A stretch of 64,000 bases of DNA, taken from NCBI GenBank assembly GCA_016184305.1, contig JACPCX010000178.1:1618-65617 (forward strand). Reading direction: 5' to 3'. How positions within the stretch are numbered: the stretch's first letter is position 1; every line of letters starts with the position of its first letter. Made by a program: the position numbers. Positions 30,001 to 33,000 of this stretch are shown here, piece by piece. Source of the DNA: Candidatus Rokuibacteriota bacterium. GTDB lineage: Bacteria; Methylomirabilota; Methylomirabilia; Rokubacteriales; CSP1-6.

Positions 30001-33000
30001 CGCCGGGCCAGGCGGCGAGATCGGACGGGGTGACGGCCTCACCCGGCTTGGCCTGCGCCGGATCCCACAGGAGCACCACGCGGTGGCCCCGATCGAGGGC
30101 CGCCTGGATCAGCGAGGCCAGGACGCGGAGGAAGCCCCTCCTGTGCGCGAGGACGCCGATCGTCACCGTCAGGCCGGCGGTGCGTCGGCGAAGCGCTTCT
30201 GGATCAGCCGCGGGCCCAGCTCGACGGCCCGCAGGATCTCGACGATGCGCGGCGCCGCGTGCCCGTCGCCATAGGGGTTCACGAGGCCGGCGAGGCCCGC
30301 GCGGAAGCCGGGCTCGAGCGCGCGCGTCATCCCGTCCAGGATCTCGTCGCGCCCGTACCCGACGTCGATGACGTTGGCGGCGCGGAGGCGTCCGCGCTGG
30401 CGCGAGCCGATATTGACCACCGGCAGTCCGAAGGACGGGGCCTCGATGATTCCGCTGGAGGAATTGCCCACCATCACGTCGGCCTCCCGGAGGAGCGAGG
30501 CGTAGGCCTCGTCCCCGAGGCTCTTGACGAGGCGCGTGCCGGGGCGCGAGGCGGCGAGCCCCTCGAGGCGCTCGATGATCGTCTGGCCCGCGGTGTCGGC
30601 GCCGGGATAGGTGGCGATCACGTCGCCGTCCACCTTGGAGAGCGCCGCGGCGAGCTCGTCGGCGTGCATCGCCGTGTCGGCGTACTCGAGCGTCACCGGG
30701 TGCAAGGTGACGAGGAGCGTGGGGCGGCGCAGCGGGAGCCCGACGCGCTCGGCGAGTGCCGCCCGGGACAGTCGCGCGAGCCTCAGGAACCGGTCGAGCC
30801 CCGGCGCCCCGCAGCAGTGGACGCGCCACGGCTCCTCGCCCAACTGGACGAGGCGCCGCGCGTAGCGCTCGGCCGCGGCGAAGTGCAGGTGGGAGAGCTT
30901 GGTGATGGCGTGACGGATCTGCTCGTCCATGGCCCCCTCGGTGAGCTCGCCGCCGTGCAGATGAGCCACGGGGAGCGCGAAGGGCAGCGCCGCCACCGCG
31001 GCGCTCAGCATCTCGAAGCGGTCGCCGAGGACGACGAGCAGGTCGGGACGCCGGCGCGCGAAGGCGCGGGCGAAGCCGGCCACGCCGATCCCCGTGGAGG
31101 CCGCGATGGCCCCGGGGGTGTCCGAGTCGAGCAGCATCTCGATCCGCTCGACGATGGGCCAGCCATCGGTCTCGACGGCGGTGACGGTGCGCCCGAAGCG
31201 CGTCGCGAGATGGCTGCCCGCCACGTAGACGCCGAGCTCGAGGTCGGACACGGCCTGGATTTCCTGGAGCACGGGGACAAGATGGCCGTAGTCGGAGCGG
31301 GCGACGGTGACGACGCCGATGGTCCTTGGCATCGCCCGCATCTTAGCACGCGGCCCTGCGCCGCCTCCGCGCGAGGCGGGCGAGGCGGGGTGCAGCTAGC
31401 TCCTCACCCACGGAACCCCACGGGGTTCGGAGCTGCACCCCGCCTCGCCCGCCTCGCTCCGCCCGTGAGAGTTCTTGACACCCGGAAAATGGCTGGGCTA
31501 AGGTGGCGCGAGCACGCTGCCGTGGACCTCGATGCCCCATGAATCTCTACGACGACTTCCGGCCCGACGTCGGAGCACTCCTCAAAGAGCAGGACGCCAG
31601 CCTCCCGCAGCCCGACCCGGCAGCGCGGAGCGGCGATGGGCTGGGCCCGCTCGGGACGCTCGCGAGCCTCGCGCGGCTCTCCGCGCTCGGGGCGCAGGTG
31701 AAGTCGGGACTTCACCGGCGGCTCGTCCACGCCAACCTCCGCCTCGGCTGGCTGCGTGAGTTCCAGGAGTACTGGTCCGGGGAGCTCGGCTGCCGGCCCA
31801 TCCAGCCCTTCGAGTTCTATTATCTGGCGGGTGTGTACCGGCAGCGGCTGCAGACCATCCACTTCGAGAGCCTGTCGAACCCCGACCTCGCCTCGGATGA
31901 CAAGCACCTCGACGCGTGGCGCGATCCCCGGACGGTGCACTACCTCTTCAACCACACCTACCGGCTGGCACTGGCCCCGTTGCGCGTCCACCCCTACATC
32001 CGCTGGGTCCCGCGCGGAGGGCGGATCGCCGAGTTTGGCTGCGGTGCCGCGCCCATCCTGACCTCGCTGGCCCGCCACTACCGCCATCGGGACCTCCAGC
32101 TCGTGGGCGCGGACATCCCGCACCTGCTCTTCCACTATGCGCGCTGGAAGTTCCGGCGGGATCGCTTCGTCACCATGGTGCCGGTGCCGCCGGGGGACGG
32201 CGCGCCGCTGCCGGGCAGCTATGACACGATCTTCTGCATGGAGGTCCTGGAGCACCTGCCCCGCCCGATCCCCGTGCTCCAGCACGTCCACCGCGCGCTC
32301 AAGCCGGGCGGGCACCTCGTCTTCGACTATGTCCGCTCCGACGGGGTGGGCTTCGACACCGCGAGCGCGCTGCGCGACCGCCTGCCCGCGCTGCAGTTCG
32401 TCCTCGACCACTTCGACATCGTGCGAGGACGCGTGACCACGGAGGGCTCCCACGTCGAGCCGGCCGTCGCCCGCAAGCGGTCATGAGTCTCGCGGAATAC
32501 CTGGACCGCGTGGCGCCGGCGCCCGAAGAACGGGAAACCCGGGCGCAGGCCGGATGGCTTCGGCTGTACGCCGGCGCTCCCGGGGTCCCCGCCCTCCGGA
32601 CCCCTAGGTCCGCGAGTCCGACGAAACTCATGAACGGTTCATCCGCGAGGAATGATCGGGCAACCGGGCGGGTGGCGCAGGCCGCAGCTCCCGCGGGGCC
32701 GCGCGAAGTGGGACCCCCTCGTCCCGTCCGCAGCTCGAAGATCTGCGTTCGGGCGAGCGGGTGACGGAGCCGGCTCCGCGGGAGCTGCACCCCGGGACAG
32801 GACCCGCCGGCCGCGCGCGCCGCCATTGCTGAATTGGCCGGCCCAGCGCGCCGGCGGGCGCTACCGGCGGCGGAGGGAGGCGGCGCCGCGCCACGCGTAG
32901 AACACCACGAAGGCCGCGAGCGACAGACCGCTCACCCAGATCCCCGCGATCAGGCTCCGCGCCCGGCAGCGGAGCTCCACCACATGCGTGCCGGGCGGCA

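Follow-up and report, generated by a model that had tools for sequence, protein, structure and literature searches.

What does a long, perfect palindrome do between two divergently transcribed genes of a sugar cluster, and how did it come to be there? We addressed this question in the window, the whole stretch of 64,000 nucleotides that was analysed, whose source is a Candidatus Rokubacteria MAG. A first-pass annotation had described a 27-bp inverted repeat with a nested hairpin in the gap between an epimerase and a methyltransferase gene, and had offered three functional ideas for it: an operator for a dimeric regulator, an attenuator, or a member of a mobile or repeat family. All coordinates below are positions in the window.

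The palindrome and its setting

The locus comprises the following features:
30169 to 31332, minus strand: gene for a NeuC-like hydrolysing UDP-GlcNAc 2-epimerase (PF02350), product identical to MBI2199637.1
31340 to 31348, minus strand: predicted extended -10 element of the epimerase gene, TGcTAAGAT, a conserved block with a putative promoter function
31371 to 31397, no strand: left arm, two tandem GCGAGGCGG units and then GGTGCAGCT; the full arm reads GCGAGGCGGGCGAGGCGGGGTGCAGCT
31398 to 31430, no strand: spacer of 33 nt, holding an AGCT duplication, the invariant core CCTCACCCACGGAACCCCACGGGGTTCGG and a nested 7-2-7 palindrome
31431 to 31457, no strand: right arm, the exact reverse complement of the left arm, containing a 9-nt tandem repeat
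31475 to 31504, plus strand: predicted methyltransferase promoter, TTGACA (31475-31480), an 18-nt spacer and TAAGGT (31499-31504)
31539 to 32486, plus strand: gene for a class I SAM-dependent methyltransferase, product identical to MBI2199638.1

The two genes lie as the annotation had placed them, with the epimerase on the minus and the methyltransferase on the plus strand. Their starts required small corrections: the methyltransferase ATG is at 31539 rather than 31540, and the epimerase likely begins at the ATG at 31332 rather than at 31341. Between them, the perfect inverted repeat measures 87 nt overall, with arms that are complementary at all 27 of their 27 positions and separated by the 33-nt spacer. 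The nested 7-2-7 palindrome GAACCCC-AC-GGGGTTC (GAACCCCACGGGGTTC) occupies 31413-31428 and a second palindrome, AGCTAGCT, occupies 31394-31401, so the nested architecture is as first described. The AGCT at 31398-31401 is a duplication found only in the window and in the related locus L027. Beginning within the right arm, the 9-nt tandem repeat CCCGCCTCG runs for 2.7 copies (31439-31463), and the pentamer TCCGC flanks the hairpin on both sides (31366-31370 and 31458-31462).

That such a palindrome exceeds chance, as had been claimed, was confirmed. The arm 27-mer occurs at two places only in the 64-kb window, against an expectation of 0 from 100 shuffles, and forms the longest and sole perfect long inverted repeat in the 64 kb, the runner-up being 79% complementary. 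When we simulated 100 first-order Markov windows, allowing spacers of up to 100 nt, the longest perfect inverted repeat was 10-16 nt compared with the 27 nt observed. Treated as RNA, the 199-nt interval folded with z-scores of -6.8 and -7.1; the 87-nt element, treated as DNA, gave -11.1.

We infer that a core promoter lies on either side of the hairpin. On the epimerase side, the predicted extended -10 element sits 7 nt upstream of the ATG at 31332, and because of this short distance the epimerase mRNA is probably leaderless. The block GCTA(G/A)(A/G)AT-N7-ATG is kept in every lineage, even where another gene lies upstream. On the methyltransferase side, the candidate promoter TTGACA-N18-TAAGGT is present as annotated, and both hexamers and the 18-nt spacing are conserved across relatives while the spacer sequence differs. 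Although a consensus promoter scan rejected TAAGGT and did not call this promoter, the comparison of sequences suggests that it is probably real. Both predicted promoters, with their start sites, fall outside the hairpin and are directed away from it, in agreement with the earlier designation of a divergent promoter region. We accordingly hold, with moderate confidence, that the hairpin would occupy an untranscribed gap between two back-to-back promoters of the sigma-70 type. Two other candidates in this interval were rejected. A sigma-54 promoter, TGGCAT-N5-GCAT (31327-31341), was ruled out by inspection on its spacing, and a coding reading of the 65-aa ORF at 31343-31540 fails since strains that are 99% identical differ here in length by 13 and 21 nt, which shifts the frame.

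Variation of the hairpin among related lineages

The hairpin is found at the same site in close relatives (96-99% protein identity), yet its arms are never the same. Relatives differ by a 9-nt unit, by the 4-nt AGCT duplication, by a 21-nt duplication and by 60-nt units. For instance, in L030 and L043 the left arm is 27 nt and the right arm 18 nt long and the AGCT duplication is missing, L027 has one mismatch together with a 21-nt partial duplication of an arm, and L029 has two stem mismatches. L033 and L035 carry a different stem, a perfect one of 18 bp, and in one lineage the 18-bp stem shows two compensatory substitutions and a paired indel. The impression of an arrangement "too perfect" does not hold as a lasting property, given that strains 99% identical to the window show unequal or mismatched arms. 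Length change is concentrated in the element itself: in comparisons with the 99%-identical strains, whose fourfold-site divergence is 0.7%, we counted 0 indel columns in ~1,400 nt of flanking coding sequence and 13-21 inside the 87 nt. In relatives at 85-90% identity, only 66-70 nt separate the genes and the hairpin is absent, and the folding z-score is +0.2 compared with -6.7 to -11.1 in carriers.

These comparisons bear on the reading that the hairpin is a selected regulatory structure at the DNA level, either a cruciform formed under negative supercoiling or a loop palindrome bound by a dimeric protein, that couples or insulates the promoters of the sugar cluster. We regard this as unlikely, though it accounts for several observations. 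The hairpin is positioned exactly between the two divergent core promoters and is kept in every sampled member of the clade despite its high indel rate, and arm sequence changes between lineages while pairing persists. Paired bases make up 94.7% of cells compared with 36-48% when partners are slid, pairing having been kept through the two compensatory substitutions and the paired indel noted above. However, these compensatory changes are confined to a single branch, and with only six sequences 8 of 500 shuffles reach the observed score. Stem mismatches, moreover, occur in three of the seven haplotypes.

The loop presents a similar picture. The spacer core CCTCACCCACGGAACCCCACGGGGTTCGG is unchanged in every hairpin-carrying relative, and the 25-nt loop (invariant core CACGGAACCCCACGGGGTTCGGAGC) is the same in all carriers together with its 7-2-7 palindrome, which with a 4-nt loop could nucleate extrusion. 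Yet divergence here is low, and for 25 nt this invariance is not significantly above the neutral expectation (about 0.09-0.4). The stem differs between the window and L033 at 9 of 54 positions and the loop at 0 of 25, levels compatible with the neutral benchmark of 0.094 per fourfold site. A GC-rich stem with a loop of 25-33 nt would also be kinetically unfavourable for cruciform extrusion. Further against a regulatory structure, neither the divergent gene pair nor the promoter motifs are lost in the hairpin-less relatives at 85-90% identity, so that sister lineages would run these two promoters without it. Our search for a regulon of the loop palindrome gave no second site, either in the window or among the related loci retrieved, and there is no regulator gene among the neighbours of the hairpin. 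The proposed operator for a dimeric regulator is unsupported because arm sequence varies between lineages while pairing is kept, and because second sites and a nearby regulator gene were both lacking in these searches.

Relation to a dispersed intergenic repeat

The outer right arm of the hairpin and its flank correspond to the start of a GC-rich intergenic repeat of ~60 nt, which we refer to as unit U. Three loci within the 64 kb carry it:
23714 to 23761, minus strand: solitary, diverged copy of U (nhmmer E=7e-7) in the gap between an oxidoreductase and a HisF-like gene of the same sugar cluster
31444 to 31473, plus strand: segment homologous to U positions 1-30 (nhmmer E=0.024, alignment, and orthology with relatives in which the full unit continues from the arm)
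60069 to 60314, minus strand: tandem array of U, period 60, 4.2 copies, flanked by the 3' ends of two convergent genes, for an OppC-like permease and a cupin

At the hairpin, the first 19 nt of U (CTCGCCCGCCTCGCTCCGC) extend from 31444 to 31462, across the outer right arm and its TCCGC flank. The array shows 94% identity to L031, the 23.7-kb copy lies antisense to the operon around it, and the orientation of U differs among the three loci. The right arm of L031-L037 leads directly into one or two complete U units; at the hairpin locus the window has no complete unit, L033 has one, and L036 and L032 have two each. The hairpin-less relatives retain a short U-like core, GCTCGCTGGGGGAGTTC, immediately upstream of TTGACA, and therefore U-like sequence predates the hairpin at this site. 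Unit U itself is pyrimidine-rich on one strand and is not palindromic, its folding being no better than that of shuffled sequence (z +0.7 to +2.0).

We give an even chance to the explanation that the hairpin is a lineage-restricted, hypervariable palindrome that formed locally from the dispersed repeat U and is close to neutral. By this account, a U-like sequence would already have been present just upstream of the methyltransferase -35 element. The ancestor of a narrow clade of Rokubacteria would then have gained next to it a copy of the U-junction sequence in inverted orientation, giving a stem of ~20-29 bp around a 25-nt loop. Later changes may have arisen by slippage among short direct repeats, namely the 9-mer CCGCCTCGC, AGCT, the 21-mer and whole units of 60-66 nt. 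From the pattern of variants we infer that changes in one arm were passed to the other, whether by template switching or by selection for pairing, and the perfect 27/27 arms of the window would then be one recent state of this process of slippage and transfer. The consequence would most probably be architectural and nearly neutral: the predicted transcription starts, near 31332 on the minus and near 31511 on the plus strand, would have moved from ~74 bp to ~179 bp apart, and each promoter would have the insert upstream of it as a sequence prone to form a hairpin or cruciform. That the hairpin is neither a sequence-specific operator nor a part of either mRNA is a proposition that we hold with middling confidence.

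Counter-evidence to this explanation comes from the inner stem, which has stayed fully complementary through two double substitutions and one paired indel. Kept pairing and an invariant loop also fit selection for structure or for a binding site. In one reading, which strikes us as doubtful, a fragment of a selfish repeat would have been domesticated as a structure-selected DNA element that coordinates the epimerase and methyltransferase genes of the nonulosonic-acid cluster. There the hairpin or cruciform, with its invariant 7-2-7 loop palindrome, would sense the negative supercoiling between the promoters or bind a structure-specific protein, and the compensatory changes would reflect selection and not template switching.

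A more improbable explanation is insertion into the promoter spacer of a MITE or REP-like mobile unit, bearing 27-bp terminal inverted repeats and generating a TCCGC target-site duplication. The 27/27 arms that bound the 87 nt of non-coding DNA are of MITE-like length, TCCGC lies on both sides, the element is present or absent at this site among related lineages, and it is related to the dispersed repeat U. Contigs also break or hold gaps inside it: those of L028 and L037 begin inside the loop, and those of L032 and L034 have N gaps there. Against these points, the right-hand TCCGC represents U positions 15-19, on which ground we rejected it as half of a 5-bp target-site duplication, the boundaries do not align cleanly with the empty sites in L026, L038 and L005, and the unit that is actually dispersed is not palindromic.

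Searches for further copies pointed the same way. A covariance model run with filters off found no second copy of the whole hairpin in the 64-kb window (next best 19.8 bits, E=0.13), and 138 kb of related loci contained orthologous copies only. The 20-nt arm core returned eight single-arm chance matches in 185,579 species genomes and nine in JGI metagenomes, all in unrelated taxa; for these two scans the invariant loop core would have served better as a pattern. Searches of viral contig, plasmid and phage collections gave nothing. A classical MITE is unsupported, because no second whole-element copy was found in the sequences and collections searched. The first-pass annotation had proposed that many dispersed copies would mark the palindrome as a repeat-family member and not a regulatory site. 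Since U recurs at two other loci in the window, this holds in part: the arm and flank that form the start of U are dispersed, while no second copy of the whole element turned up in these searches. Among the three functional ideas, membership of a repeat family comes closest to the evidence.

A second hairpin lies beyond the methyltransferase gene, and a suggestive observation is that it shares a 14-mer, GGAGCTGCACCCCG, with the palindrome (32781-32794 in the second hairpin). Kinship between the two found no nhmmer support and no local alignment beyond this core. The 14-mer GCCCGCCTCGCGCG is not enriched in the window (17 matches compared with 12.3 expected). A related and likewise doubtful possibility is that the two hairpins bracketing the methyltransferase gene mark recombination junctions at which glycan-modification genes would be shuffled.

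RNA-level readings, significance and known systems

An element acting as RNA, be it a leader or attenuator, a small RNA, or a terminator or insulator without a U-tract that stops upstream antisense transcripts from both promoters, is in our judgement quite improbable. The RNA hairpin would be very stable on both strands, compensatory changes occur, and both single-sided changes in L027 would form G-U pairs in a minus-strand RNA. However, transcription from the two predicted promoters, both outside the hairpin, would proceed away from it, and neither inspection nor the scan revealed a convincing promoter reading into it. We found no terminator-like site in 31200-31700 and no T-run on either side of the hairpin. 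Since both predicted starts lie outside and point away, and no terminator-like tail follows, an attenuator in particular is unlikely. Rfam gave 0 matches in the window at gathering thresholds and, at a permissive E-value, only generic microRNA-precursor hairpins (18-28 bits against cut-offs of 53-196); ARAGORN detected no tRNA-like gene. It would also be unusual for a functional leader to vary in length by 13 and 21 nt between strains that are 99% identical. Lastly, a fold-back chimera made by the assembler is very improbable: inverted repeats do trouble assemblers, as the contig starts and N gaps within the loop attest, yet the hairpin sits amid a syntenic gene pair and was recovered independently in at least nine assemblies that differ in sample and pipeline, and the two-unit right arm and the AGCT duplication each recur outside the window, with L027 and L033 as the assemblies concerned.

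If local formation from U is correct, the palindrome is ordinary biology, an interspersed intergenic repeat folded back on itself. A long and apparently "too perfect" palindrome in one genome may then be a transient state at the strain level, and perfection is weak evidence of function. A role as a dedicated regulatory switch, operator, attenuator or autonomous MITE is not supported. Should the regulatory reading be true instead, the locus would hold a natural cruciform-type element where transcription-driven supercoiling is greatest. To our knowledge, the Rokubacteria/Methylomirabilota, an uncultured phylum of soil and groundwater, have almost no promoter or repeat annotation, and our search of the literature yielded nothing specific on Rokubacteria repeats or on cruciforms at divergent promoters. 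The comparison offers a first sketch, in this group, of an interspersed repeat family (unit U) and likewise of promoters with an extended -10 element that are likely leaderless. On the same reading, repeats of this kind interrupt assemblies and fall at recombination junctions of a surface-glycan locus, a point to bear in mind when strain variation is read from metagenomes.

Several known systems resemble the locus in part. From intrinsic terminators and attenuators the hairpin differs in having no T/U run behind it and no predicted start that would read into the stem-loop. Invertons, known from surface-polysaccharide loci, also place their inverted repeats (20-30 bp) upstream of genes for surface-glycan biosynthesis; the arms here enclose only 25-33 nt with no promoter, in one and the same orientation in all ten contigs, and there is no recombinase gene among the neighbours. 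Correia/NEMIS elements, the Neisseria MITEs with terminal inverted repeats of 26-27 bp, are similar in arm length, small size, promoter proximity, hairpin formation and presence or absence among strains. Unlike the element here, they number in the hundreds, nearly identical to one another, with an IHF site and TA target duplications, whereas no second copy of the hairpin was found here and its apparent duplication belongs to the parent repeat.

The REP/BIME sequences of enterobacteria and pseudomonads share with U a GC-rich, extragenic character, occurrence at several loci, three in 64 kb for U, and a strain-variable copy number. They too form tandem arrays where the 3' ends of genes converge, as U does at 60069-60314, and inverted pairs that can give long hairpins. 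They differ in that U is a strand-asymmetric unit of 60 nt and not a short imperfect palindrome, only its hairpin rearrangement being palindromic; the hairpin here stands in a spacer between divergent promoters, 5' of its genes and not 3'; and U is not known to resemble any described REP in sequence. No RAYT transposase was seen among the genes around the three U loci, which were scanned against Pfam. The MIRU/VNTR minisatellites of Mycobacterium are GC-rich, intergenic tandem units of 40-100 bp in a high-GC genome and vary in number among strains, and U behaves in the same way, with a period of 60, an array of 4.2 copies and zero to two units at the hairpin locus. MIRUs, however, are oriented with their operons and contain small ORFs that overlap the flanking genes, a feature not found for U, which has no consistent orientation, and they typically lack long perfect palindromes.

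Quasipalindrome template-switch hotspots, known from thyA and lacZ reporters in E. coli, describe a mutational mechanism and not a family of elements, and their operation here is suggested by the pattern of sequence variation. The likeness is in how the palindrome changes: as at those hotspots, changes in one arm appear to have been copied to the other, perfecting the complementarity, and mutations cluster inside the repeat while its flanks stay unchanged.

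Structure and setting of the hairpin

With moderate confidence, we read the hairpin at 31371-31457 as the product of a local rearrangement that turned a resident interspersed repeat into a palindrome, in DNA that would be transcribed from neither of the two flanking predicted promoters. The window has a G+C content of ~70%, and the hairpin separates a NeuC-type hydrolysing UDP-GlcNAc 2-epimerase gene on the minus strand (MBI2199637.1, identity 387/387) from a class I SAM methyltransferase gene on the plus strand (MBI2199638.1, identity 315/315), the divergent pair named in the first-pass annotation. 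Both proteins are annotated in one 'Candidatus Rokubacteria bacterium' MAG. The neighborhood is a nonulosonic-acid cluster, with gene products that include NeuB, a GFO/IDH/MocA oxidoreductase, a HisF/HisH-like pair, cytidylyltransferases, and a flippase; none of the neighbors in this cluster close to the hairpin is a regulator gene.

Features of the intergenic region
31340-31348, minus strand: TGcTAAGAT, seven nt before the epimerase ATG at 31332
31371-31397: left arm of the hairpin
31394-31401: AGCTAGCT, in the span given as spacer content of the hairpin
31413-31428: GAACCCC-AC-GGGGTTC, a 7-2-7 palindrome inside the spacer
31431-31457: right arm of the hairpin

The first-pass annotation had described a perfect 27-bp inverted repeat with a nested gaacccc…ggggttc in its spacer, and we recovered both: the arms are complementary at 27/27 positions around a 33-nt spacer. 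Its view that the repeat exceeds chance was also borne out, as the longest perfect inverted repeat in 100 Markov simulations of the window was at most 16 nt. No rival of near-equal quality occurs across the 64-kb window, nor does the arm 27-mer recur there with up to 3 mismatches permitted (0 expected by chance). Folding as RNA gave the interval z-scores of −6.8 and −7.1; folding as DNA gave the 87-nt element −11.1.

Variation among related loci

Relatives with 85-90% protein identity (loci L005, L026, and L038-L042) have the same divergent pair and promoter motifs, but lack the hairpin; their intergenic gap is only 66-70 nt and their folding z-score is +0.2. Every relative at 96-99% identity has a hairpin at the same site and none has the window's arms, so the perfect 27/27 state is private to the window strain.

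Hairpin variants in relatives
L030, L043: left arm 27 nt, right arm 18 nt (minus one CCGCCTCGC unit); AGCT duplication absent
L028: right arm and loop as in L030 and L043; contig begins within the loop, left arm unseen
L027: single arm mismatch; 21-nt partial right-arm duplication
L029: two stem mismatches
L031, L033, L035, L037: distinct stem CGAGCCGGGGGCCGCTCC / GGAGCGGCCCCCGGCTCG, then 1-2 extra 60-66-nt units before TTGACA

All hairpin carriers compared have the same loop core. Several relatives' contigs begin within the loop or have N gaps there, and the comparison shows that the hairpin is real in independent assemblies, yet troublesome for assemblers. Against 99%-identical strains, the 87-nt hairpin differs by 13 to 21 indel columns; ~1,400 nt of flanking coding sequence differ by 0 indels and <1% substitutions. 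Fourfold-degenerate divergence from the window is 0.007 for L027, 0.094 for L033, and 0.29 for L038. With 0.094 as the yardstick, neither the stem changes (9/54 positions) nor the loop changes (0/25) clearly depart from neutrality.

In the covariation alignment (A3; six distinct haplotypes, essentially two branches), 94.7% of cells pair under the structure that we specified versus 36 to 48% with partners slid by 1 to 3 columns. In two stem pairs both partners have changed (G-C to C-G, A-T to C-G), and one indel in an arm has its counterpart in the other. Since every matched change falls on the single branch separating the L033 group, and 8/500 shuffles reached the observed score, covariation support is modest. 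The matched inner-stem changes need explaining; they could come from template switching between the arms or from selection that favors pairing, and the haplotypes sampled fit the two alike. All clade members sampled retain the hairpin, and stem changes are matched between arms; both would be in keeping with a selected DNA-level element, whether a cruciform or a candidate protein site centered on the invariant 7-2-7 palindrome. We consider this unlikely, however, given that the covariation is confined to one branch, mismatched haplotypes are frequent, and sister lineages lack the hairpin.

The repeat unit U and the search for further copies

The extra unit beside the L031 hairpin matched window positions 60068-60197 at 94% identity by BLAST, and a profile of the repeat unit, U, matched three places in the window.

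Occurrences of U in the window
23714-23761: solitary diverged copy inside the sugar cluster (profile search, E=7e-7)
31444-31473: segment at the hairpin (profile search, E=0.024)
60069-60314: tandem array, period 60, 4.2 copies (Tandem Repeats Finder), between the convergent 3′ ends of OppC-like permease and cupin genes

U is a GC-rich, intergenic, previously undescribed repeat of ~60 nt with the consensus CTCGCC(C)GCCTCGCTCCGCTCGGGGGATYYCCATNTTCGCTCGCCTCGCCTTCGGCTGCGG and no Rfam match, and one or two copies lie at the focal locus of relatives (L031 3858-3928; L036 2-123). Its first 19 nt (CTCGCCCGCCTCGCTCCGC) exactly equal the outer part of the right arm together with the adjoining 'TCCGC', and in the L033 group the full U continues directly from the hairpin arm. 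Hairpin-less relatives retain a short U-like core (GCTCGCTGGGGGAGTTC) just 5′ of TTGACA, which implies that U-like sequence predates the hairpin at this site. By itself, U is asymmetric between strands and has no folding advantage over shuffled sequence; it takes a second partial copy, inverted and adjoining the first, to make the palindrome.

With filters switched off, the hairpin's covariance model picked out the focal element alone from the window (99 bits; next 19.8 bits, E=0.13) and no non-orthologous copy in 138 kb of related loci, the lineage sequence searched for copies amounting to ~200 kb in total. The 20-nt arm core gave 8 single-arm matches in a genome collection and 9 in a metagenome collection, from unrelated taxa and none within a hairpin, the source genome being evidently absent from both. 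No match for the hairpin came from Rfam or from viral, plasmid, or phage collections. Within the sequence covered, the copy search proposed in the first-pass annotation has a divided outcome: apart from orthologs the whole hairpin did not recur, nor did its 27-mer in the window, but part of the arm comes from the dispersed U. The mobile MITE that it had also proposed is improbable, as these searches found no further non-orthologous hairpin and no clean target-site duplication is apparent.

Predicted promoters, mosaic flanks, and known repeat systems

GCTA(G/A)(A/G)AT-N7-ATG lies directly 5′ of the epimerase gene in every lineage, even with a different upstream gene. This suggests an mRNA without a leader, transcribed from a predicted extended −10 element, and would set the start codon at ATG 31332, three codons past the first ATG (31341). 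TATGAT-N6-ATG and TATCAT-N6-GTG occur at two other window genes (starts 44542 (+) and 33598 (−)), and in hairpin-less relatives the methyltransferase likewise looks leaderless (TACGGT-N8-ATG in L038). The TTGACA-N18-TAAGGT candidate promoter of the methyltransferase fared less evenly: its hexamers and spacing are kept as TTGACA-N18-TA(A/C)GGT in the window, L025, L026, and L038 around an 18-nt spacer of varying sequence, as expected of a real promoter, but a consensus scanner rejects the weak −10. Promoters and start sites at this locus are predictions rather than measurements. Both promoters point away from the hairpin, which would lie at about −39 to −125 from the epimerase start and −54 to −140 from the methyltransferase start. 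An RNA element, such as the attenuator first suggested, could draw on the folding of the interval as RNA, but with promoters so directed we find it slightly less credible than the MITE. An assembly artefact is very improbable, given the independent assemblies.

A second long imperfect hairpin (arms 32673-32701 / 32771-32799) lies ~190 nt 3′ of the methyltransferase stop, so that the window's two strongest inverted repeats bracket this gene; both the second hairpin and the inner right arm of the first contain the 14-mer GGAGCTGCACCCCG. It sits in a ~284-nt segment (32516-32800) that is also in the 99% relatives L027, L028, and L030, is missing from the 97% relative L025, and has other sequence in its place in L029 and L031-L037. 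L043 (1-240 versus window 31250-31530) is near-identical to window-type strains across the intergenic region and hairpin, and its epimerase CDS differs at 6.6% of nucleotides. In L001-L004 (NeuC identity 93%), a Vgb-lyase-like gene replaces the methyltransferase, with the breakpoint exactly at the conserved −10 block. The locus is a mosaic, and the epimerase 5′ end and methyltransferase 3′ end both look like recombination junctions. A YfhO-like membrane protein gene encodes 853 aa in L028; the window has only a 245-aa C-terminal ORF (32861-33598, minus strand), with ~1.8 kb of the L028 gene missing by BLAST. The far end of L028 matches short window pieces at ~38.2 and ~40.2 kb, which indicates extra sequence in the window there; G+C falls to 64 to 66% at 34-40 kb versus ~72% around it, and this stretch may have arisen by insertion or rearrangement. 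GWA2_70_23-type relatives have N6/N4 DNA methyltransferase and IS110-family transposase (PF02371) genes 3′ of the methyltransferase (L031 6759-8945; L032 3920-4876), which fits an integration hotspot in this flank.

If the hairpin is a rearrangement of resident U sequence, it would change rapidly via slippage among 4-, 9-, 21-, and 60-nt direct repeats, and arm complementarity would be maintained, most simply, by intrastrand template switching. The likeliest effect would be to shift the predicted starts from ~74 bp apart (L038) to ~179 bp apart, leaving hairpin-prone sequence upstream of both predicted promoters. In its behavior, such an element resembles interspersed intergenic repeats of the REP/BIME, BOX, or MIRU type as well as quasipalindrome mutation hotspots. 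REP is defined by a palindromic basic unit, whereas U is not palindromic, and the hairpin lacks the defining properties of an intrinsic terminator, an inverton, or any Rfam family. We file U as an undescribed repeat family from an uncultured phylum and the hairpin as its one palindromic derivative; together they make no new kind of system.
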